Source of the DNA: Planktothrix sp. FACHB-1365
GTDB taxonomy: Bacteria; Cyanobacteriota; Cyanobacteriia; Cyanobacteriales; Microcoleaceae
Assembly: GCF_014697575.1 (NCBI RefSeq)
Contig: NZ_JACJSC010000008.1
Location: 1 to 29,074 of the forward strand
DNA length: 29,074 bases
Direction of reading: 5' to 3'
The notes beneath the pieces were generated by a model that was not told the DNA's origin, made no database searches, and saw only the letters and a program-made list of their open reading frames with translations. Both the position numbers and the translations under genes were made by a program. The number at the start of each line of letters is the position of its first letter. Position 1 is the stretch's first letter. This document shows positions 5,097 to 19,119 of this stretch, piece after piece.

Positions 5097-5162
5097 TAAC
5101 TGATAACTGATAACTGATAACTGATAACTGATAACTGATTATTGATAACTGATTATTGATTC
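5085..5162. repeat. STRR-like heptanucleotide tandem repeat (CTGATAA)n: 7 perfect units plus about 4 degenerate units (CTGATTA or TTGATAA)
   Basis: The array is visible directly as gataactgataactgataactg...gattattgataactgattattgatt. It spans the stop of the + GNAT-like gene and abuts the stop of the minus-strand TPR gene. Coordinates are uncertain by about 1 nt: my manual indexing disagreed with the ORF track by 1 nt here. Confidence 0.9.
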
Positions 5163-6466
5163 ATTTGACGGTTAACAATATCAATTTTTTTCACAAAATA
5201 ATCTTCTCGATATTTTAACTGTTGTGCTAACGCTAATCCTTGTTGAAAGGCTGCGATCGCAGATTGATAGGCTTTTTGTGATAAATAGATATCGCCAATT
5301 TGATCATAAGCATTCATCATGCCATAATAGTTATAAGCTTGTTGATTGACTAAAACTTGAGCTTGATAAATATCTAAAGCGGTTTTAATTTGATTTTGAG
5401 AGCGATAAAGTTTCCCCAGTCTTCCTAATGCTTCGCTGGCGTTATCAAACTGTTGAATAGAGGTCGCAATACTGTAGGCTTCTTGATAGGTTAATCCGGC
5501 TTGTTCAAATTGTCCTAATTTTTCATAATTCCCACCAATTGCTAATTTAATTTCGGGAATGGGAAATAAATTAGGTTGATTTGCATAATAGCCTGCTAGT
5601 CTTTCCCGAACAGAAATAGCTTTTAAATATTCTCCAATTTGTTCATAAATAAATGCTAATTGTTGTAGCGATCGCACTTCACTGGCTGGCGGTGTTGGGT
5701 TGGGATTTTCTGGTGTCGCAGGTTGGGGTTGAGGCGGTGGCACATCTCCTCGTATTGTGCGAATTTCCTGCTGTAATTCTAACAGTTTTTCATAGGTTTC
5801 TGCGGCGTTGGGATAATCTAACCAATTCATATAAATTTGAGCAATTTCATTAAAATATTGTTCTTCTGCTAAAATATCTTGACTTTTGTTAGCTGTTTCT
5901 AATAAAGTTTGATAAACAGTTAAAGCTTGTGTTTTGGCTCTAACATTTTTAAAGGCTAATCCCAATAATTGCCATAATTCCAAATTATTATTTTTTTCTG
6001 TTTGCAGTTTTTGTAAAATTTGATCCAGACGTTCAGTGATAAATTTTATATAGAGTCGTTGACTATTATTCCAAGCAATTAATCCCACCCGATTTAAAGC
6101 AGCAATTTCTTGAGATAATCCGAAATAACGACGAATTCTTAACTCTCGGTTCCATAATTCAAACGCACCCGGAATATTTTGGGCGGCTAATAAGGCGGTT
6201 GCTTCTGCATTTAATTTGACTAATTCTGGTTCTAAGATTTCCTGTTGACTTTGACCTAAAATTTGTCCTTCAGAGGGAGGAGAAGGAAGTAAAGGATCAG
6301 GTTCTTTACTGAATAAGGGGTTAGGAGAAAAATCATCAAGTAGAGGTTTTTCGGGTTCAGTTTCTTTTTCTTTTTGTTTTTGGGCGATCGCAATTTCGGT
6401 ATTTCCGAAACCAGATAAAAGGATAGTAACAACCATTACAAGAGTGAGGTTTTTACGATTGCTCAT
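5153..6466 (-). CDS. Secreted tetratricopeptide-repeat (TPR) protein with a Pro-rich segment
   Basis: The N-terminal signal peptide is MSNRKNLTLVMVVTILLSGFGNTEIAIAQ. Pro-rich linkers follow (PDPLLPSPPSEG and PPPQPQPATPENPNPTPP). Multiple TPR-like helical repeats fill the rest (AxxYxxLG-type motifs). Confidence 0.7.
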   Translation of the reverse strand: MSNRKNLTLVMVVTILLSGFGNTEIAIAQKQKEKETEPEKPLLDDFSPNPLFSKEPDPLLPSPPSEGQILGQSQQEILEPELVKLNAEATALLAAQNIPGAFELWNRELRIRRYFGLSQEIAALNRVGLIAWNNSQRLYIKFITERLDQILQKLQTEKNNNLELWQLLGLAFKNVRAKTQALTVYQTLLETANKSQDILAEEQYFNEIAQIYMNWLDYPNAAETYEKLLELQQEIRTIRGDVPPPQPQPATPENPNPTPPASEVRSLQQLAFIYEQIGEYLKAISVRERLAGYYANQPNLFPIPEIKLAIGGNYEKLGQFEQAGLTYQEAYSIATSIQQFDNASEALGRLGKLYRSQNQIKTALDIYQAQVLVNQQAYNYYGMMNAYDQIGDIYLSQKAYQSAIAAFQQGLALAQQLKYREDYFVKKIDIVNRQMNQ

Positions 6467-7783: not shown

Positions 7784-9142
7784 TTAACGGTAAAATCGTC
7801 TTACTAAACTTCTAAGACCCAAAAAACCTAATTGATTCAACAGTTTAAGCCATTCTCCCAAGGACGCTGATTTTTTATAGTAGATGCGAATTAGATGGAT
7901 AGCAGCATCTCCAATTGTTTTCATGGACTTTAAGCGTTTTCCTTGTTTCAATAATTCTGAAAAAGCTAATATCGCCTGAGACCAATTTTCAGAATATTCA
8001 TATAATCTGGCTCGATTAGCTAGTACATTAAGCCGCTTAATATCCCCATAATCTAACTGATTATAAGCGTTTTCGGCTAGATCTAAATATTGTTCAGATG
8101 CTTCAAAATTGGGCTGCTCACCTTTGCTATAAGCAGCAGCAGCTAAAACATAAATATTACCTTCAATTTCAGGAAAAGATAGCTGATTTGTTCCAATTCC
8201 TAACTCTTTTGCTTTCTTTAACTGTTGAAGGGACTCTTCCAAAAGAGCTTGAGATCTTAGAAAATGACTTTGTTTATATTCTAACCAACCCATTCCATAA
8301 TAACTCAAGGCAAGAAAATACCAATTTTCTGTTGTTTCACATAATTCTTGAGCTTCTAAGAAAACTAATTCCGCTTCGTTGGTTTGGTTAAGGTTTAAAT
8401 GAGCAATTCCCTGGCTATAAAGAATCCGACCCAAATCAAAATAATTCTCAATTTTTCGCAAAATTGATGCTGATTCTTGATAACAACTAATAGCTAGATT
8501 ACTTTTCTCAAATCGATCATAGGAACTACCTAGATTCGCTAATGTATTTGCTTGTAAATAAAGATGATTTTGCTGTTCAAATAATTTTAAAGCCTGCAAA
8601 AGATGCCATTCTGCATCATCAGGTTGATTAGAACGTTGAAGTGCTATTCCCGCTCCTAAATGATTCCAAGCTAAAAACATTGGGTCGCCTGCTTCTTGAC
8701 TGGCTAAAATTCCTGCTTGATGATAGTCTATAGATTTTTGAAGTTGACCAATTTCTTCGAGATAACGTCCTAAACCACAATATAACCAAGGTGCATCTGT
8801 TCCTACACCTTTAGCAATTTCTTGTTCAGTCCAATTTCCCCAATCTCGCCAATCTTGAGTTAATTCACAATAGTTAAATATTACTCGACAATAATCTCTT
8901 CTATTTTGTTGATTAACATCATAATTCTGTTGATTAACATCATCATTAATTTGCTCAAAAATCTCTCGCAATTGCACAATAATTTCTGTTACTGATTCTG
9001 ATTTTTCTGGTTGATTACTAAATAATTGCTCATTAAGTTTTTGAGCTTTTTTTAACAAGTTTTGGCTCCAAATAGCTTCAGTAGAATCCCATAAATTTAG
9101 AAAATTTTGAATTTGAGCAAAATTACTTGGCAAGTTGTTCAT
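7784..9142 (-). CDS. TPR-repeat sensor-like protein, separate C-terminal partner of the upstream HTH-NB-ARC NTPase
   Basis: The 452-aa all-helical repeat protein has TPR-like motifs throughout. Its start overlaps the stop of the NB-ARC gene by 20 nt in a different frame, indicating translational coupling. Confidence 0.7.
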   Translation of the reverse strand: MNNLPSNFAQIQNFLNLWDSTEAIWSQNLLKKAQKLNEQLFSNQPEKSESVTEIIVQLREIFEQINDDVNQQNYDVNQQNRRDYCRVIFNYCELTQDWRDWGNWTEQEIAKGVGTDAPWLYCGLGRYLEEIGQLQKSIDYHQAGILASQEAGDPMFLAWNHLGAGIALQRSNQPDDAEWHLLQALKLFEQQNHLYLQANTLANLGSSYDRFEKSNLAISCYQESASILRKIENYFDLGRILYSQGIAHLNLNQTNEAELVFLEAQELCETTENWYFLALSYYGMGWLEYKQSHFLRSQALLEESLQQLKKAKELGIGTNQLSFPEIEGNIYVLAAAAYSKGEQPNFEASEQYLDLAENAYNQLDYGDIKRLNVLANRARLYEYSENWSQAILAFSELLKQGKRLKSMKTIGDAAIHLIRIYYKKSASLGEWLKLLNQLGFLGLRSLVRRFYR

Positions 9143-10535
9143 ATTTTTCTCTTAATGTATAGCGAAAATAACGGGCTGTAAAAGAGTGTAAAGATACTTG
9201 TTTACTTAATCCTGAACTGACATCTACTAGAGATAATCTAACTAAAATGCTCAAGGCATGATCAACTTCATTTTTTGATAATTGATCAGTAAGATCATAC
9301 AATAACCTCACCGGAACGGGTTGATTACGAGCCGCAAGATTAATTAATAAATATTGAGTCAAAACAGCATTTAAATTACAAAGTTCTTGCCAACTATCTT
9401 CAAAAAGATAATCATACAATGCTTGTCCTTCTGGTACATTCTCAAAGCGTTCAACAATGCGATCTAAATCCAAATTTTTCAATTGACTGACCAAAAGCTT
9501 CATCGCTAAAGGCATTCCATCAGTAATCTTTAAAATTTTTTCCATTTCAGCTTCTGTAGCTTGAAGAATAGGATTTTGACTAACCGGATATTTTTCTTTT
9601 GAAATGACTTGGATAAATTCACGCGATACATCACGATTTAATTTACCAAGTCTATATTCAAAAATATCACTCTCTGTTCCCTTCCTACTGGTTAAAATCA
9701 AGGTACTTTGCCCTAATAAACCCCGTAGTTCGTTAGCTAATTCTTTAGGACTTTCTGTGTCTTCTAAACCATCAATAACTATGAGAGTTTGTGTGTTATT
9801 TAAAACCTTTCTAATTTCCGTTTTACACTTTTCAATATCTTGTAATACGAAATGAGGTAATTTGAGTTCACTCCCAATGTCTTTAATAGCATCTTCTAAG
9901 GTTAAACGAGAATCTCTTGAGCTAGAATTAGGTTCATTTTTTTCAGGATAATATTGATATACTTTTGCTCTAACCCAAGCAATTTTTGAGAATAATTTAG
10001 CATGATAAGCTTGGGATACTAATTGATGACATAGAGCAGTTTTTCCTAAACCACCGATACCCAGTATCCCAATTATCCCTAAAACTTTATTTTTTTGTTC
10101 AGATTCTAGGTATTTTAAGAGTTCTTCTATTTCAGGATTTCGTCCTACAAATTGACCATAAGTTCTTTCTTTTTGCCAAGTTTCTTCACTATACTTTTTA
10201 GGATTATTATCAAAAGTATTGGTCTGCTGATAGCCTTTACAATTTCGTTCAATAGCTGCTTTAAAATTCCTTTTAGTTACTTCTTCTCCTAATGCTTTTG
10301 AAAGTTTATCCCAAAATTTATTTCCTACATCTTTTTGAAGATAGTTTTGACTATAATCATGGCTTTCGGCTATTTCATTGTAAGTTTTTTTCTGCCAAGA
10401 TTCTCTAAAAATAATTGTCTCAATATCACTAAGTTTCTCTCCAAATTTTTCATAAAAACATCTGTTGGCTACTTCTAAAGCTTCATCTTCACTTAAGTTA
10501 CTGAATTGCTCTGTCATAAGATTAAACACCCTCAC
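9123..10535 (-). CDS. STAND NTPase: N-terminal HTH domain plus NB-ARC ATPase, with no C-terminal repeat domain
   Basis: Walker A is GILGIGGLGKTAL. Walker B is LIVIDGLED. The N-terminal HTH-like segment is ETIIFRESWQKKTYNEIAESHDYSQNYLQKDVGNKFWDKL, a sigma region-4/LuxR-like pattern. The track start is GTG at 10535. The ATG at about 10517 (MTEQFSNL) with an upstream GAGGG is a likelier start. Confidence 0.8.
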   Translation of the reverse strand: MRVFNLMTEQFSNLSEDEALEVANRCFYEKFGEKLSDIETIIFRESWQKKTYNEIAESHDYSQNYLQKDVGNKFWDKLSKALGEEVTKRNFKAAIERNCKGYQQTNTFDNNPKKYSEETWQKERTYGQFVGRNPEIEELLKYLESEQKNKVLGIIGILGIGGLGKTALCHQLVSQAYHAKLFSKIAWVRAKVYQYYPEKNEPNSSSRDSRLTLEDAIKDIGSELKLPHFVLQDIEKCKTEIRKVLNNTQTLIVIDGLEDTESPKELANELRGLLGQSTLILTSRKGTESDIFEYRLGKLNRDVSREFIQVISKEKYPVSQNPILQATEAEMEKILKITDGMPLAMKLLVSQLKNLDLDRIVERFENVPEGQALYDYLFEDSWQELCNLNAVLTQYLLINLAARNQPVPVRLLYDLTDQLSKNEVDHALSILVRLSLVDVSSGLSKQVSLHSFTARYFRYTLREKYEQLAK

Positions 10536-10594
10536 CTGACTTAACCTGACTTAACCTGACTTCAATTATATCAGATGTTCAAAGCCCTGACTTC
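10535..10594. repeat. Tandem 10-mer direct repeats CCTGACTT(A/C)A, three in tandem plus one spaced copy, at the 5' end of the HTH-NB-ARC gene
   Basis: cctgacttaa occurs at 10535-10544 and again at 10545-10554. cctgacttca occurs at 10555-10564 and again at 10585-10594. On the coding (minus) strand the array lies directly upstream of, and abutting, the start codon. Confidence 0.8.
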
Positions 10595-10792
10595 AACTGT
10601 ATCGACTGTTTTAACAAGCTAAGAGAGCATAGGGTTATAGGTTTAAGAGTTCAGTTTTAGTTCATTTTATTTCGCAAAGTAGATTGAACAAACTGAGCGA
10701 TCAAACCCTTCATTATCAAGCATTCTGGAAATATAAGAGTAAGCAGAGTTGGCCGACGAGCTTCTCATCCCATTATTGAGAGGTAATCTGTG

Positions 10793-10969
10793 ATGAAACG
10801 TCTTTCTTTGACTCAAATTTTACTCATTGTGAGTTTAATGGTTCATACTGTAAGATTCATCAATGATATTTTGCCTTATAATCAACCTGCTTTTGCTTCT
10901 CCAGATCCTTTGGAAGTTAAGGTTAATCATAATTGTCCAGATGGTAATACAGGAGACACAAAGTAGTTT
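10793..10969 (+). CDS. Possible small secreted peptide (58 aa), speculative
   Basis: It starts at an ATG (a GTG lies 3 nt upstream) preceded by GAGAGG. The translation is MKRLSLTQILLIVSLMVHTVRFINDILPYNQPAFASPDPLEVKVNHNCPDGNTGDTK. The N-terminus is signal-peptide-like. It falls below the 60-aa ORF-track cutoff and sits in an otherwise empty 490-bp gap between minus-strand genes. Confidence 0.2.
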
Positions 10970-11027
10970 GTAATTCTAACTAGATTTGCCTAGATTATAG
11001 GCAGTCTAGTTGGGTTTTATAAAATCA

Positions 11028-12602
11028 TCATTGTTTAACTTTCTGCTTTGCTAATTCTTGCCATTCTTTGATTTCTGGCTGATTATCTGGAGCAGAATAA
11101 GTTAAACATTTTTGCCATTCTTCCTGTGCTGATTCTTGTTCAGCTTCTAATACTTGTGCCATTAAACAGTAAGGGGGTGCTAGATTTAAGTTGAAGTCAA
11201 TAGCTCGTTTTAGAGATTGTTTAGCTGCTGATAATTGTCCTAATTTTAATTGTGACCAGCCTAAATTTTTATAGAGATCATGTTTGGTTTTAATCTCAGA
11301 ATTAGGATTAATTTTTAAACTGCTTTCAATTAAAGTAATAGCTTGATCATAATTACCTGTTAAAATTTGTAAACGGGCTAAATTATTGTAAGATTTATCA
11401 AAATTGGCTATATCAATTGCTTTTTGATATTCATTTTTGGCTAAACCGAATTGTTCTTGATTCTCATAAAGTAATCCTAAGTTATAATGAACCTTAAAAA
11501 ATTTATTATTAAAAAATAAGGCGAAACGATATTGCCAAAAAGCACTGTTATAATTGGATTGCTCAAATGCTTCTAAACCACTATCATTAAGTTGTCTAGC
11601 AATTTGAGGTGATAATAAAGATAAAATTAGAGAGGTTACAACTAAAAAGGTAGCAGTAGGAATTGTATTTAATAAAAATTTTTGTTTTTGAATTAAAAAG
11701 AAATAATGCCAATAATTTTGATGTTTTATCACCTCTAAAATTTGATTAATATTTTCGTTTTTTTCTTGTTCTATCGCATCTAAATATTGTAAAATAATTG
11801 ATGTATTCTGAGGACGTTTACCTGGATATTTGTCGATCATATAATTAATTAAATTAGCTAAATCCTGAAATTCGCTTTTTAAGCAATTTTGCCATTTTTT
11901 ATTTGTATTTCCTGATTCTTCTGGCAGATTTCCAGTCAATAAATGCACTAAAGTTCGCCCGAGTGCAAAAAAATCTGATTGAGGAAAACACAGACCTTCA
12001 AATTGTTGTTCTGGAGGTGTATATGAGATAGAACAAATTTGTGTATCAAATTCACTTGTACCCATTTTAATTAAATAAGTTGCGGTAATTTGTCTAACAG
12101 CACCAAAATCAATTAAAACCAAACTTCCATCGGACTTTAAGATAATATTTTCTGGTTTAATATCTCGGTGGATAAAGTTTTCTTGATGAAGTAATGCTAG
12201 AATTTCTGTCAATTGTTTTAACCAATTAATGGCTAATTTTAGCTCGGTAATTTTTTGATTTTTTTCTAACCAATTCTTTAAATTTTCTCCGGTAATTTTT
12301 TCCATTACTAAACAATGTAATGGCTTTAAATAACCTTCTGGGATAATAGTAAAGTAATCATATCCTTTAGGAATACCAGGATGAGCTAATTTTTGTAATA
12401 CTTTTGCTTCTTGTTGAAACAGAGAAATGATTTTATTTTGATCTTTTTCTGGATAATATTGAAATTCGTTCTGGAGGAGTATTTTTAATACTTTATGTTC
12501 TTGCTCTTGGAGATCATAGACTTCCCACACTTCTCCAAATCCTCCTCTTCCTAGAAGACAGATCACCTGATATCTATCATTAATTATTTTTCCTACTTCC
12601 AT
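11028..12602 (-). CDS. Hanks-type Ser/Thr protein kinase with one transmembrane helix and a C-terminal TPR domain
   Basis: Kinase motifs are GRGGFGEV (Gly loop), VLKIL (Lys), HRDIKPENIIL, IDFGAV and YTPPEQ. A TM segment, FLVVTSLILSLLSPQIA, lies at about aa 305-325. TPR repeats fill the C-terminal ~190 aa. The start overlaps the upstream NB-ARC gene by 23 nt. Confidence 0.85.
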   Translation of the reverse strand: MEVGKIINDRYQVICLLGRGGFGEVWEVYDLQEQEHKVLKILLQNEFQYYPEKDQNKIISLFQQEAKVLQKLAHPGIPKGYDYFTIIPEGYLKPLHCLVMEKITGENLKNWLEKNQKITELKLAINWLKQLTEILALLHQENFIHRDIKPENIILKSDGSLVLIDFGAVRQITATYLIKMGTSEFDTQICSISYTPPEQQFEGLCFPQSDFFALGRTLVHLLTGNLPEESGNTNKKWQNCLKSEFQDLANLINYMIDKYPGKRPQNTSIILQYLDAIEQEKNENINQILEVIKHQNYWHYFFLIQKQKFLLNTIPTATFLVVTSLILSLLSPQIARQLNDSGLEAFEQSNYNSAFWQYRFALFFNNKFFKVHYNLGLLYENQEQFGLAKNEYQKAIDIANFDKSYNNLARLQILTGNYDQAITLIESSLKINPNSEIKTKHDLYKNLGWSQLKLGQLSAAKQSLKRAIDFNLNLAPPYCLMAQVLEAEQESAQEEWQKCLTYSAPDNQPEIKEWQELAKQKVKQ

Positions 12603-14352
12603 GATTAATCACACTGAATAAATGCTTAATATTTCTCTGAAAATATCCTAACCCTGAATTTGAATCCAGTTGTAATAATAAATCTTTTAATTGAGTATAT
12701 AAATCTTCAGAACCGTTTAAATTAACAAGTTTGTCTATAATTTGGTTTGATAGTTTAGGATTAATTAAGTTATTATGAGAATTAGGATAAACTAAAGGAT
12801 GAGTTTTTAAGAATCCTATATTTTGCCAATTTTGGGTTTTGATCACTGCTATCATATTAGCGCAAAACTTTTCTATAAATAAATTACTAACATATTTCTT
12901 AATAAATGGAGGTAGGCTATAAGTTATTTCTATATTATTAGCATCTTGAGTTAAGAGCGGTCGCCGTTTGAGCGATTTCATTGTATTAAAAATCTCTGTC
13001 CCTGATAAATGGCGATCAAAAACTTGTTTTAACTGTTCTTGGGACAAACTTTCAGTAACAATAGCCAGGAAATAAATAATATCTACTTCCTGTGCTGATA
13101 GTTTGGTAAATACCGGGATAATATAGTTACTAATGACATCACTTACTAGGAGTGAACTTTGTTTAAAATATTGTAAAATATTTCCATTAAATTCTTGTTT
13201 AATATCCTGTGCTACCAGGTTAAGAACTCCAGGGTGATAACTATAACGTCTGATTAAATTAGTTAAAACTTGAGAATCTTTTCCAAATCCTTGCTGTTCA
13301 AAAATCTGGAGAGCAGAGACTGGATCTAACCCCTTTAAATCCCAGGAATAAACAGGCATTTGTTGAGATAATAACATTTCAAATTGTATCGGTTTTTCTT
13401 GACTTATAAAAAGCCCACAACTTTGATGAGATGTTTTAGCGATTTGGCTTAATAACTTTCCATACTCTTCATATTCCGGGCGGTAATAACCTGCTAAATT
13501 TTCTGATTGTAAAAGTTCTTCCCAATTGTCTAATATGAGTAAACAACGATGATTACGAAAATAATCAATAATGGGTTTTATATCTCCTGTAAAATTTGTA
13601 GGTTGTTCGGTTAAATCATGCCAAAATAAAGAAAAAGGCTTAGGATTAGATAAAGTTTTATAAATAATACATTCAAACTGATCTGTGATTTGCTCTAAAA
13701 GATTTACGATGAAAGTTGTTTTACCAATTCCAGCCATTCCCGATAGTAGAATAACTTTTGTTTGTTTATTACTCAGCCATTCCAATAACTGATTTAACTC
13801 AGTTTTTCTTCCATAAAATATAGGCTGATGGGGAAGTTCATCTAAATTAGATTTTAATAAAAAGTGATCAGGCTGTTGGGATTCATTCTGAATTATTTTT
13901 TGCCAATCTAAATCAAGAATAGAACAATAAATTTTAAAAGCATTTACGTTAACTGGATATATTTTTTTATGAGAAGCAAACCGACTCCAAGTTCCCCAAG
14001 AAATATTTTGAACATAAATTTCCCCAGAATCAATCAATGTTTTGATTTTCTCTAAAAAAGTAAATTTATTATTTTTTAGAATTTCCCACTTGATTTTATC
14101 TAATTTTTCCTGTTTTTGTTCTTGAGTTTGGCGTTTATCTCTTTCAACTCGAAAAATTTGTTCAAACTCTTTCAACCACCGAGGGTCATTATCACTTAGC
14201 TGATGCTTTTGTTGATATTCCTCAATGTACCTATAACAAGCAATAACCAAAGGCCTAGTATCCTGTTCGCTGACTTTCCATTTTCTATTTGCGATCGCAG
14301 TTTGAATCTTTTGATGCCCTTCTTTCGATGCTGTAAAGGTTTGACCTACCAT
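12580..14352 (-). CDS. STAND NTPase: Xre-like HTH N-terminus plus NB-ARC ATPase, co-transcribed with the Ser/Thr kinase
   Basis: Walker A is LSGMAGIGKTTF. Walker B is CLLILDNWEEL. The N-terminal HTH-like block WGTWSRFASHKKIYPVNVNAFKIYCSILDLDWQKI is paralogous to the one in the 15835 gene. The 590-aa product has no TPR or WD40 C-terminus. Confidence 0.8.
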   Translation of the reverse strand: MVGQTFTASKEGHQKIQTAIANRKWKVSEQDTRPLVIACYRYIEEYQQKHQLSDNDPRWLKEFEQIFRVERDKRQTQEQKQEKLDKIKWEILKNNKFTFLEKIKTLIDSGEIYVQNISWGTWSRFASHKKIYPVNVNAFKIYCSILDLDWQKIIQNESQQPDHFLLKSNLDELPHQPIFYGRKTELNQLLEWLSNKQTKVILLSGMAGIGKTTFIVNLLEQITDQFECIIYKTLSNPKPFSLFWHDLTEQPTNFTGDIKPIIDYFRNHRCLLILDNWEELLQSENLAGYYRPEYEEYGKLLSQIAKTSHQSCGLFISQEKPIQFEMLLSQQMPVYSWDLKGLDPVSALQIFEQQGFGKDSQVLTNLIRRYSYHPGVLNLVAQDIKQEFNGNILQYFKQSSLLVSDVISNYIIPVFTKLSAQEVDIIYFLAIVTESLSQEQLKQVFDRHLSGTEIFNTMKSLKRRPLLTQDANNIEITYSLPPFIKKYVSNLFIEKFCANMIAVIKTQNWQNIGFLKTHPLVYPNSHNNLINPKLSNQIIDKLVNLNGSEDLYTQLKDLLLQLDSNSGLGYFQRNIKHLFSVINHGSRKNN

Positions 14353-14541
14353 ACCTAGTTTTAATTAATTGTCAAGATCAGTTGAGATCAGGAATAAGCC
14401 GATCTTAACAGATATGACAGCTTAAATCATCTCTTGGAATAATTAAGGTGTAGTGAAGCGAGAAACCTTTCTTGTCGAGGAAAGAAAGTTAAGCCTTTTC
14501 CCAATTCATTCAACCTCAATACGATAATAGGAGAAAAATTT

Positions 14542-15687
14542 ATGCCTTTGCCTACAACAGATAACGAATGGGATCGTCAAAGTGGCGATGATATTTTATT
14601 TGATGGTAATTCATCAAATGGAGAAAGTTCAGCCGAGGTTAAGCAAGTCTTCAGTAATTTATCTACTACAGTCTTGGGGCAGCAGTACCGTATGAGTGCT
14701 GGTTATGCTTATGACCAAAGTTATAAGAGCGGTTATGGCACTTGGCACGCAGGAGTTGATATCGCTGCACCACTTGGAACTCCGGTAAGAACAGCCGTTG
14801 GTGGTACAGTTATCGAACTGCAAAGAACTCCTCAATCCACTAACCGTTTTGTGGGTGTTCAAGGAGATGATGGTCATCTGTGGGTTTATGGTCATTTACA
14901 AAGTCTGCAAGTTCCCATCGGTGGTCGAGTTAATGCTGGACAGCAACTCGCTAGTATAGGTAATCCCGCAGCACCCCATCTGCATCTTGAAGTCCAACCC
15001 AACCGTCGCACTTATACAGTTACTAACGGCGCACACTGGGATCAAAACTTTGTTTTAAACAATACCATGAGTCCCTTACAAGCCTTTCATCGGGCTCGTG
15101 GTGGTGGAACAACTCCACCTCCAGGGGGAACTCCTACATCTGGCAACGATAATATTACTGGTGGTGCGGGTAACGACAATATCAATAGTTTAGCTGGAAA
15201 TGACACTGTATCAGGAGCCGCAGGAAATGATACCCTAAATGGTAATAGTGGTAACGATCAACTATTTGGCAATGATGGGAATGATTCATTACTAGGTTGG
15301 ACAGGAAACGATACCGTAACGGGTGGTAATGGCAACGATGTCTTGGATGCCTTTTATTACAGTGGTCTTAGTGGTAATGGAGAGATTGATTACTTAAGGG
15401 GAGATGCAGGTGTAGATACCTTTGTTATTGGTGATTCTTACGGCAAAGGTTACTTAGGAAATAGTTATGCTGTCATTGAAGATTTCAACTGGCGGGATGA
15501 CTATATCAAAATCCAAGGTAGTTTAAGTCAATATGCCCTTAAGCCCGGCAATCTTTACGGCTATTCTGCTAATGATACTGCAATTGTTTTAAGCAGTAAT
15601 AATAGTGAAGTATTAGCGATCGCTCGTAACGTATCCACAGCTAATAGTACAATTCGTTATTCTTCATCTGATTTTCTTTCGGCTTAA
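14542..15687 (+). CDS. Secreted M23-family metallopeptidase with C-terminal RTX (hemolysin-type) calcium-binding repeats; probable T1SS substrate
   Basis: M23 motifs are HAGVD and HLHLE. Seven GGXGXD-type nonapeptide repeats are present (GGAGNDNIN...GGNGNDVLD). There is no N-terminal signal peptide, which fits C-terminal type I secretion. Confidence 0.85.
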   Translation: MPLPTTDNEWDRQSGDDILFDGNSSNGESSAEVKQVFSNLSTTVLGQQYRMSAGYAYDQSYKSGYGTWHAGVDIAAPLGTPVRTAVGGTVIELQRTPQSTNRFVGVQGDDGHLWVYGHLQSLQVPIGGRVNAGQQLASIGNPAAPHLHLEVQPNRRTYTVTNGAHWDQNFVLNNTMSPLQAFHRARGGGTTPPPGGTPTSGNDNITGGAGNDNINSLAGNDTVSGAAGNDTLNGNSGNDQLFGNDGNDSLLGWTGNDTVTGGNGNDVLDAFYYSGLSGNGEIDYLRGDAGVDTFVIGDSYGKGYLGNSYAVIEDFNWRDDYIKIQGSLSQYALKPGNLYGYSANDTAIVLSSNNSEVLAIARNVSTANSTIRYSSSDFLSA

Positions 15688-15699
15688 TTCTATTTCTAT

Positions 15700-15740
15700 G
15701 GGGTGAATGATTTTTTATCAATCATCTCACCCCATTTCTA
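15700..15740 (+). terminator. Hairpin terminator candidate downstream of the M23-RTX gene
   Basis: GGGGTGAATGATT pairs with AATCATCTCACCCC as a ~13-bp stem with one bulge. The loop is TTTTATC. A weak T tract follows. Confidence 0.4.
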
Positions 15741-15834
15741 AAAGCAACCTATGATTTGAGATAATTTTCCCCAAATGTATTAAAATCTGATTATTAAAGC
15801 TAATAACCCTAAGAAATCAATTACTCCTATTATA

Positions 15835-17238
15835 ATGTCAGTTAGTCTTAGAGCCTCACAATCAGGCCGAGCATCCATCGAGCAAGCCCGCAAAAAGAAA
15901 GGCTGGTCAGCTAATTCTTCAATGTGGTGTAGCTACGTTCCTACATCACCAGCTACCTTAAAACGATTTCGAGAAGGAAAAGCCATTAACCAAGAGGTTT
16001 TCCTTAAACTCTGTGAAGCCGTTAGCGTGAATTGGGAAGAAGTTGTAGAAACAGATTTATCAACATCTTCTCAACCTGAACAAGTTCCCGAATTTTCTCA
16101 ATTTGATCAATCTTGGGTTGGTCGAGAACAACTCCTCACCGAATTAAAACAGAAAATAGAAGGTTCTTGTCGAGTTTTAATTATTACAGGAATTACAGGG
16201 ATTGGCAAAACCGCCCTAGCTGAAAAATTAGTCTTTGATTTACGGAAAGATTGGTTAAAAGATGACTGGACAAAATTTCATTCAGAGAATTTTGATAATC
16301 AAAACCAAGCCTCAGATTTTGCTAGTGTTGCGGTTCGTTGGTTAGAAAAATGGGGACAGATTGTTACCTTAGAAGATCGTAAAAATCCAGAACAAATCCT
16401 CCATCGCTTAGTCAATTTTTTGATCAATCATCGTTATCTGATTGTGATGGATTCCCTGGAATTGATTATGAAAGGAAATGAAGACGAGGGTTGGAGTGAT
16501 TTTGAAGATGAAGGGTGGGTTAAATTCTTTCACGCCTTATTAGCGAGTTCTATTTGTCAAAGTCGTTTGATTCTCACAACTCAAGAATTACCCGGACAAA
16601 TGCCTTCTCGCTATAAAAATTTCTGGGATTCTAAACGTTTAAGTGGACTTGAACCACCGGAACAATTAGCATTATTTGAAAAGACGGGATTAGAGATTGA
16701 TTTATCTTCCGATTATTCTCCCTATTTAGAACGGATTGGTCAGGCTTATGAAGGTCATCCTTTAGCCTTACGAGTCATTTCTGGTGAAATCGGTGATCAA
16801 CCCTTTTTTGGTAATGTTATCGCTTATTGGAATAAACATGGTAATGAAATTGAAGCAGTGGAAAAAGCGATCGCAGAAGCTAAAGAACAAGGTATAATTC
16901 AAGGTGCAAATGACCAATGGAAATTAGACCGATATACTGGGAATCTAAAACAGAGAGTGCGTTATCGACTAGAAATCACCTTTAGTCGTTTAGAGAAAGA
17001 TGCCTTTAATGCTTATCTTTTACTCTGTTCTGCATCCATCTATCGCTGCGCTGTTACTCCTGATTATTGGTTAAGTTTACTAGAAGATGATTGTGAAGAA
17101 GAAGAACAGAAAATTGCTTTAGAAACTTTGCGTGATCGCTATCTTCTTGAAGAAAGTATCGAAAACTATCAATATGTAATTAGACAGCATAATTTAATTC
17201 GTAGTGTCGCCCTAGAATATCTGAAAAACATGGATTAA
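15835..17238 (+). CDS. STAND NTPase: Xre-like HTH N-terminus plus NB-ARC ATPase
   Basis: The HTH-like block is SPATLKRFREGKAINQEVFLKLCEAVSVNWEEV. Walker A is ITGITGIGKTALA. Walker B is YLIVMDSLE. The 467-aa product ends 5 nt before the TPR partner ORF. Confidence 0.8.
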   Translation: MSVSLRASQSGRASIEQARKKKGWSANSSMWCSYVPTSPATLKRFREGKAINQEVFLKLCEAVSVNWEEVVETDLSTSSQPEQVPEFSQFDQSWVGREQLLTELKQKIEGSCRVLIITGITGIGKTALAEKLVFDLRKDWLKDDWTKFHSENFDNQNQASDFASVAVRWLEKWGQIVTLEDRKNPEQILHRLVNFLINHRYLIVMDSLELIMKGNEDEGWSDFEDEGWVKFFHALLASSICQSRLILTTQELPGQMPSRYKNFWDSKRLSGLEPPEQLALFEKTGLEIDLSSDYSPYLERIGQAYEGHPLALRVISGEIGDQPFFGNVIAYWNKHGNEIEAVEKAIAEAKEQGIIQGANDQWKLDRYTGNLKQRVRYRLEITFSRLEKDAFNAYLLLCSASIYRCAVTPDYWLSLLEDDCEEEEQKIALETLRDRYLLEESIENYQYVIRQHNLIRSVALEYLKNMD

Positions 17239-17243
17239 CCCTG

Positions 17244-18578
17244 ATGATTCAACTCCCCAATCAAGCTCTATATCAAAACTCTATTGATTTGATTTTAGAA
17301 CAATTAAATATTGATTCTGCCTTTTTTAAAACCCTACCCCGTTTTCAACGGATGAATTATATAGCTACGGTCAGGTTTTTGAGGGGCTATAAAACTCATC
17401 CAGATGAACAATCTTCACAAAAAGTCAAAAATAGCTTAGAAGCTTTATACCACCTGTGTACAATTCCAGAATGGGTACTAACCGATTCTACTATAATCAC
17501 TATTTTTGAACTTCCTATTGCTATTAATCCTTCTACGACTAATCTATTACTCCCTTTATCTGAATATCTATTTTTCAAAGGTTCTTATCAAACTTTACTG
17601 GGGGTCACTCAAGAGATTATAGATTCATTAAAAACCAGTAGCAAAATTTTGAATGATATTTTACTTTTAAAAGCTATAACGTTAAGTAGCTTAAATCAAA
17701 ATCCGACACAGGTTTTTCAAATTCTTCAAGAAATTTCTGCTACATCCCATCCTCAATCCTTACAACATATAAAAGCAAATTGTCATTTAGCAATGTATCA
17801 AGTTTCCTTGGGAAATTATCAAGATGGAATCAGGAACTTGAAAAAATGGTTAGTGATTGTTGATGAAAATTTGAAGCATCAAAATCTAGCTCAATCAGAT
17901 TTTCAGCTTGATGATATTAAAACGGGAATGCTTGAGATTTTGGCTCATTATGAAATGAATGCGAGTCATTTTGATCAAGCTTTAGAAATTTACGATCAAG
18001 TTATTAACTTAAGGAAAAAACTGGGATTAATTCATCGAATAATTACTCCACAAGTGCATCAAGGCATTATTTTACGGAGAAAAAGACAATATGACCAAGG
18101 GATTAAAGTTTTGCAAAATGCTCAAGAAAAAGCTAAACAAATTAATTATATTCAAGCCGAGGTTTTTATTGCTCATCATCTCGCTTATATATATCTTAAC
18201 CAAGGAAATTTAATAGAAGCAAAAAAATTAGCAATAGTAGCTTTTGAAGGCTATAAAAAGGCCGAGAATTACCAAGGAATTTCTGATTGTTATGAACAAT
18301 TAGGTTTGATTAATCTGGCGGAAAATAAGTGTGAACAAGCTATCCAAAATTTTAAAATAGCCCTAGAAATGAGACAAGCTAGTTTGAATCGACATGGAAC
18401 AGCTAGTTGTTTATTGGATTTGGCTTTAGCTTATTGGCATAAAAAACAAATTATGAAATCTATTTTTTTCTTAATTAAAGGTTTACAATCCTATGCTCAA
18501 CTGGGAATTTTAAATAGAGTTCGATTCATGCGAATGCTAAAAATAGCTTATAGTTGGACTCTGGGTAAACAAAACTAA
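17244..18578 (+). CDS. TPR-repeat sensor-like protein, separate C-terminal partner of the HTH-NB-ARC NTPase
   Basis: The 444-aa helical repeat protein has TPR-like motifs (AxxYxxLG/AxxxF patterns). It starts 5 nt after the NB-ARC stop. Its length and position mirror the 7784-9142 gene. Confidence 0.7.
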   Translation: MIQLPNQALYQNSIDLILEQLNIDSAFFKTLPRFQRMNYIATVRFLRGYKTHPDEQSSQKVKNSLEALYHLCTIPEWVLTDSTIITIFELPIAINPSTTNLLLPLSEYLFFKGSYQTLLGVTQEIIDSLKTSSKILNDILLLKAITLSSLNQNPTQVFQILQEISATSHPQSLQHIKANCHLAMYQVSLGNYQDGIRNLKKWLVIVDENLKHQNLAQSDFQLDDIKTGMLEILAHYEMNASHFDQALEIYDQVINLRKKLGLIHRIITPQVHQGIILRRKRQYDQGIKVLQNAQEKAKQINYIQAEVFIAHHLAYIYLNQGNLIEAKKLAIVAFEGYKKAENYQGISDCYEQLGLINLAENKCEQAIQNFKIALEMRQASLNRHGTASCLLDLALAYWHKKQIMKSIFFLIKGLQSYAQLGILNRVRFMRMLKIAYSWTLGKQN

Positions 18579-18597
18579 AAAATATCAGAAAATAAAT

Positions 18598-19119
18598 ATG
18601 AAAGTAGGAATTGTTTGTGGCTATGGTAATATTGTAGACGATAACCTGACTGATTATCTTGATTTTGTAATTAGCCATATAAAGGAGGAAAAAATTGATC
18701 AATTAATCCTGAGTGGTGGATGTAGTTTTACAAAATCCCCTATTTCTGAAGCTCAATTAATGAAGCAACTAATCACCAATAAAATATCAGATATAGATTT
18801 ATTTTTAGAAGAAAAATCTTTAACTACTTTACACAATTTATTATATTCAAAGGAATTTTTAGATAATCTTGAAAATAACCAAATTCAAGCTATTTATATA
18901 TACTGTGATCAAGTTCGTTATTTTAAAATAAATTGTTTGGCTAAAATTATTTTTAGAGATTACCCTATAAAAGTTATTAAATCACAAAGAAAAGAAAACA
19001 TCCTGATTTATTCAGCACAAATTCCATCTCTATTCATTCAATGCTTGGGAGCAATTTTTCCTAATATTGAAAAAAAAATTCTGATTAACAAGAAAAAATG
19101 GATTCAAAAATACAGATAG
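18598..19119 (+). CDS. DUF218 (YdcF/SanA/ElyC-family) protein, extremely AT-rich
   Basis: LILSGGCSFTKSPISEAQLMKQLI...LFLEEKSLTTLHN matches the DUF218 core pattern SGG...SEA..M...LE..S.NT..N. The gene lies 19 nt downstream of the TPR gene on the same strand. Its Lys/Ile/Asn-rich composition is far more AT-biased than its neighbours. Confidence 0.5.
   Translation: MKVGIVCGYGNIVDDNLTDYLDFVISHIKEEKIDQLILSGGCSFTKSPISEAQLMKQLITNKISDIDLFLEEKSLTTLHNLLYSKEFLDNLENNQIQAIYIYCDQVRYFKINCLAKIIFRDYPIKVIKSQRKENILIYSAQIPSLFIQCLGAIFPNIEKKILINKKKWIQKYR

Follow-up and report, generated by a model that had tools for sequence, protein, structure and literature searches.

NB-ARC ATPases and their candidate TPR sensors are encoded by separate, conserved gene pairs in cyanobacteria

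Introduction

Accounts of STAND- and NLR-type switches usually present a single chain whose sensor restrains the ATPase through intramolecular contacts. Here we describe three gene modules (A, B, and C) in a 29,074-nucleotide stretch of DNA from Planktothrix sp. FACHB-1365 (contig NZ_JACJSC010000008.1, positions 1 to 29,074; hereafter the window), in which an NB-ARC ATPase without sensor repeats and a protein with tetratricopeptide repeats (TPRs) are encoded by separate, directly adjoining genes. The ATPases are called NBA, NBB, and NBC, and their respective partners are TPRA, the kinase KINB, and TPRC. Gene order and conservation indicate that this split STAND architecture is genuine and common in cyanobacteria and, as far as we found in the literature searched, it is undescribed.

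AfsR of Streptomyces, a large SARP regulator with a SARP-NOD-arm-TPR layout, recognises direct repeats at an 11-bp spacing and is a substrate of AfsK, a Ser/Thr kinase encoded nearby; its target afsS is the gene of a small protein, and the linker between its ATPase and its sensor is called the "arm" (PMC10936776). The Planktothrix modules share with AfsR an N-terminal DNA-binding domain (in the modules a helix-turn-helix, HTH, predicted to bind DNA) joined to NB-ARC, a partner domain at the arm position, TPRs, and repeats with 11-bp phasing, while the kinase partner in module B and a small open reading frame (ORF) adjoining NBA recall the AfsR/AfsK/afsS arrangement. However, AfsR is one polypeptide, and its DNA-binding part is a SARP domain (OmpR-type winged HTH plus BTAD) rather than an XRE-type or VMAP-M9 domain. 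No SARP domain was found in the window proteins, none of which matched Trans_reg_C or BTAD, and the NCBIfam AfsR model scored them at 15-34 bits against a cut-off of 1430. To our knowledge, AfsR relatives show neither effector swapping nor hypervariable, multiplied sensors. The modules also depart from the MalT/LAL pattern, a LuxR/GerE-type HTH placed C-terminal to the sensor, in that their HTH is N-terminal and that GerE has no match among the window proteins.

Avs proteins are generally single polypeptides. Together with other bacterial NLR-like defence proteins, they resemble the modules in having an N-terminal output domain, a STAND ATPase, and a C-terminal TPR-type sensor (split off here), and further resemblances to Avs are the swapping of N-terminal effectors, including PNP and TIR-like domains, and fast-evolving sensors. 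Unlike Avs, the modules have an HTH output and belong to an NB-ARC clade that is nearest to plant NLRs and Apaf-1 in fold, and their ATPases have no convincing match among the PADLOC defence models. Likenesses also exist to the nucleoside triphosphate-dependent conflict systems, which likewise occur in filamentous cyanobacteria, employ PNP, TIR, calcineurin-like phosphoesterase, and HTH domains, and often have their components distributed over adjacent genes (Kaur, Burroughs, Iyer and Aravind 2020/2021; PMC7159879, PMC8195603). In those systems, however, the separately encoded parts are effectors or adaptors, not a TPR sensor. The name of the HTH_VMAP-M9 domain in NBA seems to point to the vWA-MoxR (VMAP) systems of the same body of work; neither vWA nor MoxR was found among the 18 window ORFs scanned with Pfam, a scan that left out an ORF of 1663 amino acids. 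A polyketide synthase of the same length is encoded in the syntenic region of P. pseudagardhii.

In plant sensor/helper NLR pairs, recognition and signalling reside on separate, genetically linked proteins, several sensors can share one hub, and both partners are complete NLRs. Loci with two to four partner genes per ATPase gene, described below, are analogous to this arrangement, except that one partner here lacks an ATPase.

Results

Three ATPase genes with adjoining partner genes

The three modules occupy a block of eight ORFs, all of which were reproduced by ORF listing at the coordinates and on the strands given by a sequence-only reading of the window:

7784-9142, minus strand: TPRA, 452-amino-acid TPR partner of NBA (TPR_12, 58 bits)
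9123-10535, minus strand: NBA, 470 amino acids (longest ORF), HTH_VMAP-M9 and NB-ARC, no repeats
11028-12602, minus strand: KINB, 524 amino acids, Ser/Thr kinase, hydrophobic segment, and TPRs
12580-14352, minus strand: NBB, 590 amino acids, interrupted XRE-like N-terminus and NB-ARC, no repeats
14542-15687, plus strand: M23-RTX, 381 amino acids, Peptidase_M23 and HemolysinCabind, divergent from NBB
15835-17238, plus strand: NBC, 467 amino acids, XRE-type HTH and NB-ARC
17244-18578, plus strand: TPRC, 444 amino acids, docking domain followed by TPRs (TPR_12, 45.6 bits)
18598-19119, plus strand: DUF218 protein, 173 amino acids (DUF218, 36.8 bits)

A database protein of Planktothrix sp. FACHB-1365 matches NBA at 100% identity, with 99% of the query covered; its length of 464 amino acids implies an ATG start at 10517. 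The paired genes meet with a change of frame each time: NBA and TPRA overlap by 20 nucleotides (9123-9142), NBB and KINB overlap by 23 nucleotides (12580-12602), and NBC and TPRC are separated by 5 nucleotides (17239-17243). The start codons of TPRA and KINB lie 20 and 23 nucleotides, respectively, inside the end of the ATPase gene, and such overlap or abutment of stop and start would be expected to couple translation of the paired genes.

The NB-ARC assignments are borne out by Pfam, with scores of 45.7 bits (NBA), 32.2 bits (NBB), and 36.3 bits (NBC) against a gathering threshold of 23.5 bits. Walker A and Walker B motifs were located in all three proteins (at residues 159 and 251 of NBA); the GxPLA motif reads GMPLA in NBA (residue 340) and GHPLA in NBC, and is absent or degenerate in NBB. 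For the full AlphaFold model of NBC, the plant NLRs NRC2/3/4 and ZAR1, together with Apaf-1, are the top Foldseek matches. NBA, NBB, and NBC belong to the NB-ARC (AP-ATPase) clade of STAND NTPases. Pfam found no repeat domain in any of them, as the sequence-only reading had stated, and this lack of sensor repeats on the ATPase chain holds family-wide for all three, fused exceptions being rare. The partners are likewise as described, namely TPR proteins of 452 and 444 amino acids and one protein of 524 amino acids with Pkinase, hydrophobic segment, and TPRs, and Pfam also matched the M23-RTX and DUF218 genes of the block.

An N-terminal HTH had been proposed for all three ATPases. For NBA, it is identified as PF26355 (HTH_VMAP-M9) by a precomputed match on the near-identical database protein P0001. 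For NBC, it is identified by fold: residues 1-78 yielded an AlphaFold model (predicted local distance difference test 84, from a 23-sequence alignment) for which all 50 listed Foldseek matches are XRE-type (MBF1, HipB, ClgR, SinR, 434 repressor; template modelling score ~0.6). Sequence profiles recovered this domain weakly, with HTH_3 and HTH_26 at E = 0.04 in a Pfam search that admitted E values up to 10. The same search gave no match for the N-terminus of NBB, to which we assign a putative HTH because its alignment to NBC starts with the second half of the HTH domain and because of our reading of both sequences. A PDB profile search of the N-terminal domains produced no clear identification, and none of the closest solved structures by sequence was informative. 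Inside its XRE-like N-terminal domain, NBB has an apparent insertion of ~85 residues that is rich in charged residues (residues ~35-120, from the sequence and the NBC alignment), and an Anabaena protein of 726 amino acids has only NBB residues 1-157 in common with it.

Two further proposals fared less well. The modules are not paralogous in any close sense: NBB and NBC are 24.5% identical over 314 amino acids in pairwise comparison, NBA matches the other two at E ~1e-3 to 5e-5 at best, and the similarity of TPRA and TPRC is not significant. Local triplication is ruled out by these comparisons, each module having its own widely distributed family, and the three modules are, to judge from sequence, three old and distinct cyanobacterial families rather than recent paralogues. 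As to a low-GC island, a GC fraction of 0.331 in the block against 0.358 and 0.391 in the flanks gives weak support, and values of 0.26-0.43 for the genes inside the block make the shift uneven.

The gene boundaries are conserved in independent genomes

The recurrent split had been proposed to be genuine rather than a product of frameshifts, and this is upheld by comparison: across independent assemblies whose proteins are 44-88% identical, junction geometry, and even junction sequence, is kept. Independent genomes of Planktothrix, Aerosakkonema, Okeania, Pseudanabaena, and Anabaena show these junctions again, as do metagenomes; among the sources are a 6.6-Mb P. pseudagardhii record and dozens of metagenome contigs. 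Conservation on this scale means that the split is not an artefact, and frameshift errors in three genes can be ruled out.

In module A, the 20-nucleotide overlap is found again in Aerosakkonema (locus L008) at 44% identity, in a JGI metagenome contig (L043), and in Anabaena (L001). The overlap is 8 nucleotides in a cyanobacterial metagenome-assembled genome (L004) and 11 nucleotides in Okeania (L005), and Pseudanabaena has a gap of 20 nucleotides; the context of the TPRA-type ATG, A(A/T)AAATATG, is kept at every module A junction compared. The 23-nucleotide overlap of module B is kept in P. pseudagardhii (L044, 88% identity) and in the JGI contig (L043, 56%), and the NBB orthologues have 590-593 amino acids. 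L044 also has the 5-nucleotide gap of module C. A split pair of DUF4062-NB-ARC and TPR proteins occurs in Anaerolineales as well.

TPR domains are absent from all 36 NBA homologues found, most of which have 440-490 amino acids, the longer ones carrying other added domains such as PNP or alpha/beta-hydrolase. In L004, L005, L008, L009, and L043, the gene immediately after the NBA orthologue encodes a TPRA orthologue, and the specific TPRA orthologues are all standalone proteins of ~450 amino acids; fused orthologues were sought among 1.8 billion representative proteins and none was found, the weaker matches being generic TPR proteins.

The sequence-only reading had named as a caveat that the split might prove common and already characterised. 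It is common, the module C family by itself numbering over 1,000 clusters; as to characterisation, we found no paper describing a split NB-ARC/TPR pair in the literature searched, where PMC13581612 names "split proteins" in its methods only.

A putative docking domain and exchangeable TPR arrays in the module C family

The NBC family comprises more than 1,035 protein clusters, of which 120 were listed, and almost all of its members have 455-490 amino acids. Among the 120 proteins listed, 113 are shorter than 500 amino acids and lack TPRs, six have an N-terminal PNP domain, and one has TPRs. The metagenome loci that could be evaluated have an adjacent docking-domain partner in 48 of 69 cases, a fused partner in two, and no adjacent partner in 19, and 57 of 66 downstream ORFs fall into one TPRC-related cluster.

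NBC-family partners begin with a conserved domain of ~115 residues, the putative docking domain, which precedes TPR arrays of very varied length (340-790 amino acids). A hidden Markov model (HMM) of this domain matches the N-termini of 82 ORFs and TPRC itself (~residues 10-129, E = 1e-28). It did not detect the domain in TPRA or KINB, and the N-terminus of TPRA is specific to its own family. Fused relatives had been suggested as a comparative check, and in the module C family they are collinear with gene 1 plus gene 2: the ATPase module of L092 extends to residue 653 and is followed by the docking domain at 664-778 (E = 4e-47), and in L076 the docking domain occupies residues 832-955. Since the docking domain directly follows the ATPase module in these fusions, the gene boundary corresponds to the border between winged helix and linker, and the collinearity is evidence of the Rosetta-stone kind for joint action of the two products as a single STAND protein.

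TPRC orthologues lie downstream of NBC orthologues in L044, L045, L096, L116, and L118, and related loci indicate that the sensor part changes far more readily than the switch. Between L096 and L098, identity falls from 95% in the ATPase through 69% in the docking domain to 24% in the TPR array; between L047 and L055, the corresponding values are 92%, 84%, and 35%. In Anabaena UHCC 0253, the NBC orthologue is 81% identical, and the next gene encodes a different TPR protein (590 amino acids, 25% identical to TPRC), which is followed by a second partner, a TPR protein of 734 amino acids; both have the docking domain. Eight metagenome loci have two to four tandem partner genes behind a single ATPase gene. 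Such tandem arrays were seen at the metagenome loci L065, L066, L082, and L054 and at L046 (9409-13483), each gene with a docking domain and the head gene encoding an HTH- or PNP-NB-ARC protein. The earlier proposal of exchangeable sensors is thus supported, in that the TPR partners diversify or are replaced beside a steadier ATPase, and it extends to one hub with several sensors. The broader proposal of a two-component STAND architecture with exchangeable sensors fits modules A and C and is wrong in detail for module B.

The DUF218 gene follows the TPRC-type partner in L044, L045, L096, and L116, which are all four of the TPRC-orthologue loci with a DUF218 match; the fifth locus, L118, ends ~200 nucleotides past the partner gene. 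The gene is retained beside ATPases that share as little as 44-47% identity with NBC. It is apparently the third gene of module C, and its product may be a third component or a target. The DUF218 protein is small and has no obvious membrane segment.

Decay and domain exchange in module A

In P. pseudagardhii (L044, 13811-14920), module A is reduced to a remnant in which residues 1-317 of NBA are joined to residues 400-452 of TPRA in one called gene of 364 amino acids. In Anabaena (L001, 6001-7338), the NBA orthologue is 80% identical in the ATPase module and the TPR gene downstream is broken into two ORFs. Module A may be dispensable, because it is deleted in the former genome and its TPRA orthologue is broken in the latter. 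In the Anabaena orthologue, moreover, an XRE-type N-terminus that shares 45% identity with the one in NBC takes the place of HTH_VMAP-M9, which indicates that the N-terminal domain is swapped at a fixed junction.

Module B pairs an NB-ARC protein with a receptor-type kinase

KINB (Pkinase, 122 bits; TPRs at residues 340-470) has the motifs GRGGFGEV (Gly-rich loop, residue 18), HRDIKPEN (residue 145), and DFG (residue 165) and is, by these intact catalytic motifs, a Hanks-type Ser/Thr kinase. Ahead of the TPRs, it has an uncharged hydrophobic segment of 23 residues (~residues 309-333, peak at 309), which we read as a putative transmembrane helix; the call is a single hydrophobicity peak that does not rise above that of a P-loop strand. 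If the segment crosses the membrane, the TPRs would be extracytoplasmic. KINB had been regarded as the missing sensor partner of NBB, but as a receptor-type kinase with TPRs past the hydrophobic segment it is not equivalent to the cytoplasmic TPR partners, and module B is better described, by analogy, as a kinase/STAND pair resembling AfsK/AfsR than as an ATPase with a detached sensor.

Pairs of NB-ARC and kinase genes also occur in L019, L023, and L036. Among the NBB relatives, five kinase partners are immediately adjacent and two are nearby, and their sensor domains vary, the kinases carrying WD40, periplasmic-binding-protein, CHASE2, or FGE-sulfatase domains; other NBB relatives are themselves fused to WD40 or stand alone. 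PD-T4-6 is a single-gene defence system, and its PADLOC models match the kinase domain of KINB at E = 8e-83. KINB differs from PD-T4-6 in its coupling to an NB-ARC gene and in the presence of a hydrophobic segment and TPRs; the match covers the kinase domain only and may reflect general kinase similarity.

In four loci (among them L044, L127, and L020), an RTX gene lies upstream of the NBB-type gene on the opposite strand, and we speculate that M23-RTX may be a target of module B. The P. pseudagardhii counterpart (L044, 8801-9811) has a CHAP head where the window protein has an M23 head, and the C-terminal 180 residues are 98% identical, so the RTX tail has stayed constant while the lytic domain attached to it was exchanged.

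Immune-type domains and genomic neighbourhoods

Relatives of NBC with 54-58% identity in the ATPase have the HTH replaced by PNP_UDP or by PNP plus TIR/SEFIR, or preceded by Metallophos. Some relatives in the module A family have PNP or alpha/beta-hydrolase N-termini, and NBB relatives carry TIR, BTAD, GerE, or HTH_3, with BTAD (PF03704) confined to the distant proteins P0069 and P0070. Taken together, effector swapping, hypervariable sensors, module decay, and mobile or defence-type neighbours resemble the conflict systems of multicellular bacteria.

The locus is found at the same chromosomal position in two Planktothrix species. Elsewhere, JGI contig Ga0654610_0000085 (L043, L045), a metagenome contig unrelated to the window, has all three module types within ~30 kb, and Anabaena UHCC 0253 contig VILD01000016 has modules A and C together at ~80% identity. 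Neighbours on the JGI contig include a C39-peptidase ABC exporter with several small ORFs, DUF4007 with a BrxC/PglY-like gene, and ParE; those on VILD01000016 are an integrase, XisH/XisI, and an ISL3 transposase. Membership of the ATPases in known defence systems was considered and set aside, PADLOC giving no family for NBA and marginal matches in the P-loop region for NBB and NBC (E = 1e-5 to 1e-4). A phage origin was likewise rejected, with zero relatives in IMG/VR viral contigs.

Phased direct repeats upstream of the ATPase genes

The region upstream of NBA holds three features:

10535-10599: direct repeats CCTGACTT(A/C)A (AAGTCAGG on the NBA coding strand), four copies immediately upstream of NBA
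10649-10667, minus strand: AAnTGARY tandem with 11-bp phase (AAATGAACTAAAACTGAAC), upstream of NBA and in NBA orientation, the sole match in the window
10793-10966, plus strand: small ORF of 57 amino acids, signal-peptide-like N-terminus (MKRLSLTQILLIVSLM...AFAS), divergent from NBA

The AAGTCAGG(TA) repeats, three copies at 10-bp spacing and a fourth 31 bp further on, sit between a TATAAT-like box and the start codon of NBA. The copies at -44, -34, and -24 are kept in L043 (~14009-14070) and L044 (~13784-13813). They co-occur with the HTH_VMAP-M9 N-terminus and are absent upstream of NBA-family genes with an XRE-type N-terminus, and the AAGTCAGGTA repeats are a candidate operator for the VMAP-M9 domain.

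The single AAnTGARY pair in the window is not significant on its own there. Among non-redundant NBC-family genes, however, a pair exactly 11 bp apart occurs upstream of 16 of 41, always in gene orientation (upstream regions taken from L047-L123), against none on the reverse strand, none in coding sequence, and a mean of 0.01 after shuffling. The pair also occurs upstream of NBA-family genes in Anabaena (L001), Okeania (L005), the JGI contig (L043), and P. pseudagardhii (L044), and we regard it as a candidate operator for the XRE-type HTH. Direct repeats in helical phase would be well matched to a DNA-binding domain brought into clusters through oligomerisation, and AfsR and other SARP regulators recognise repeats at this spacing.

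A near-palindrome, GAAGCTCGTTGGCCAACT (core GTTGGCCAAC; GTTGGCCGAC in the window), lies at 10747-10764 and is kept at the nucleotide level upstream of NBA-family genes in L001, L005, L043, and L044, which span several genera. The 57-amino-acid ORF has counterparts at the corresponding position of L043 and L044, with 58% and 93% identity, respectively, and has no Pfam entry on record.

Scans of the window for structured RNAs and tRNAs gave zero Rfam or tRNA matches, and promoter-like and terminator-like sites were no more frequent than in shuffled sequence. Just outside the block, at 5153-6466 on the minus strand, is a fourth, standalone TPR protein of 437 amino acids with a TPR_MalT-like match, which adjoins no NB-ARC gene; its P. 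pseudagardhii counterpart is 92% identical, and the HMM detected no docking domain in it.

Discussion

We consider it probable that the locus holds three independent NB-ARC switch modules, of which A and C are split and serve immune or conflict sensing with a transcriptional output, while module B is an AfsK/AfsR-like pair. From the gene architecture and its conservation, we infer the following mechanism for A and C. The first gene would supply a DNA-binding HTH together with a nucleotide-binding oligomerisation module (nucleotide-binding, first helical, and winged-helix domains, or NBD-HD1-WHD), and the second a family-specific helical N-terminal domain, at the arm position of one-piece STANDs, together with a variable TPR array. 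Through this N-terminal domain, the TPR protein would dock non-covalently on the ATPase half and keep it off, until a ligand on the TPRs permits nucleotide exchange and oligomerisation. The clustered HTHs might then bind the phased direct repeats (the 11-bp AAnTGARY pair, or the 10-bp AAGTCAGG repeats in the case of VMAP-M9) and change transcription, so that the window members would have a transcriptional rather than a suicidal output. In module B, a receptor-type Ser/Thr kinase would work with an HTH-NB-ARC protein and may control the divergently encoded, secreted RTX peptidoglycan hydrolase.

An immune or conflict role appears most likely because close relatives carry PNP, TIR/SEFIR, and metallophosphatase domains and because the TPR genes are hypervariable and sometimes number two to four per ATPase gene. 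Several observations weigh against the proposed scheme. NBC in the window has no 11-bp motif within 250 nucleotides upstream; the AlphaFold model of NBC, in which residues 409-464 have winged-helix-like secondary structure, is of low confidence in its C-terminal third; and the transmembrane segment of KINB is called from one modest hydrophobicity peak. Moreover, 19 of the 69 module C loci have no adjacent partner, no NB-ARC protein was convincingly matched by the PADLOC models, relatives are absent from the IMG/VR viral contigs searched, and an HTH output is as much to be expected of an ordinary regulator as of an immune sensor.

Ordinary regulation is the strongest alternative, to which we give appreciable but minor weight. 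Here, the modules would be MalT/GutR/AfsR-like regulators that are merely split, sense metabolites, stress, or cell-cell cues, and play no part against phages or competitors, with nearby targets such as the small secreted peptide, the RTX hydrolase, or DUF218. The HTH in place of a toxic domain in all three window proteins agrees with this explanation, as do phased direct repeats of the kind found at SARP-type promoters, for example those of AfsR, the want of PADLOC matches for the ATPases, and the shared chromosomal position in two Planktothrix species. However, it does not readily account for PNP, TIR/SEFIR, and Metallophos domains in relatives that are 54-58% identical in the ATPase module, for TPR arrays that are hypervariable and multiplied, for the patchy presence and decay of the modules, or for the mobile or defence-type genes that adjoin them in other genomes.

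It is unlikely that the TPR product serves a self-sufficient HTH-ATPase as a dedicated inhibitor, as a chaperone, or in an antitoxin-like role, with the signal perceived elsewhere. Family loci that lack an adjacent partner, NBB relatives that stand alone, and the loss or breakage of the module A TPR gene in two genomes, where the ATPase gene partly persists, could all be explained in this way; yet the fusions place the partner exactly at the sensor position of a STAND protein, the divergence of the TPR arrays far outpaces that of the ATPase, as expected of sensors, and tandem alternative partners are better understood as a sensor repertoire.

Programmed +1 ribosomal frameshifting at the A-rich overlap, yielding a single fused STAND protein, is very improbable. 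The ATG of the module A partner does lie amid conserved A-rich sequence, and its frame with respect to the ATPase gene is +1 in every case, but junctions range from -47 to +145 nucleotides across each family and include positive gaps, the two genes of module C are separated by 5 nucleotides and an in-frame stop, every partner possesses a conserved start codon of its own, and module A is without fused orthologues. Least credible of all is the breakage of three one-piece STAND genes by pseudogenisation or by frameshifts introduced in sequencing or assembly: one indel close to an overlap might in principle join or divide ORFs, and the Anabaena TPR gene in L001 does look broken, but identical junctions in independent assemblies from several genera and dozens of metagenome contigs, and the preponderance of short, TPR-free proteins in the NBC family, speak clearly against it.

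Within the preferred reading of split, immune-type switches, we tentatively entertain a more specific possibility, namely that in filamentous cyanobacteria one HTH-NB-ARC hub accepts several separate, hypervariable TPR sensors through a common docking domain, with a transcriptional readout by phased repeats. If so, sensor cassettes could be swapped, duplicated, or lost while the switch remains untouched, and the system would be a bacterial counterpart of sensor/helper NLR networks with non-covalent NLR autoinhibition.

If the contact between sensor and ATPase, described for single chains as intramolecular, is intermolecular here, these gene pairs would offer a ready-made system for studying NLR autoinhibition and activation in trans, and the separation would explain how sensors can be diversified or exchanged so quickly. 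The candidate operator motifs make the DNA-binding hypothesis directly testable. Thousands of database entries that are named only "NB-ARC domain-containing protein" or "tetratricopeptide repeat protein" could now be flagged as halves of one system, and, if the proposed reading is true, cyanobacteria would have put an immune-type STAND scaffold to transcriptional output.

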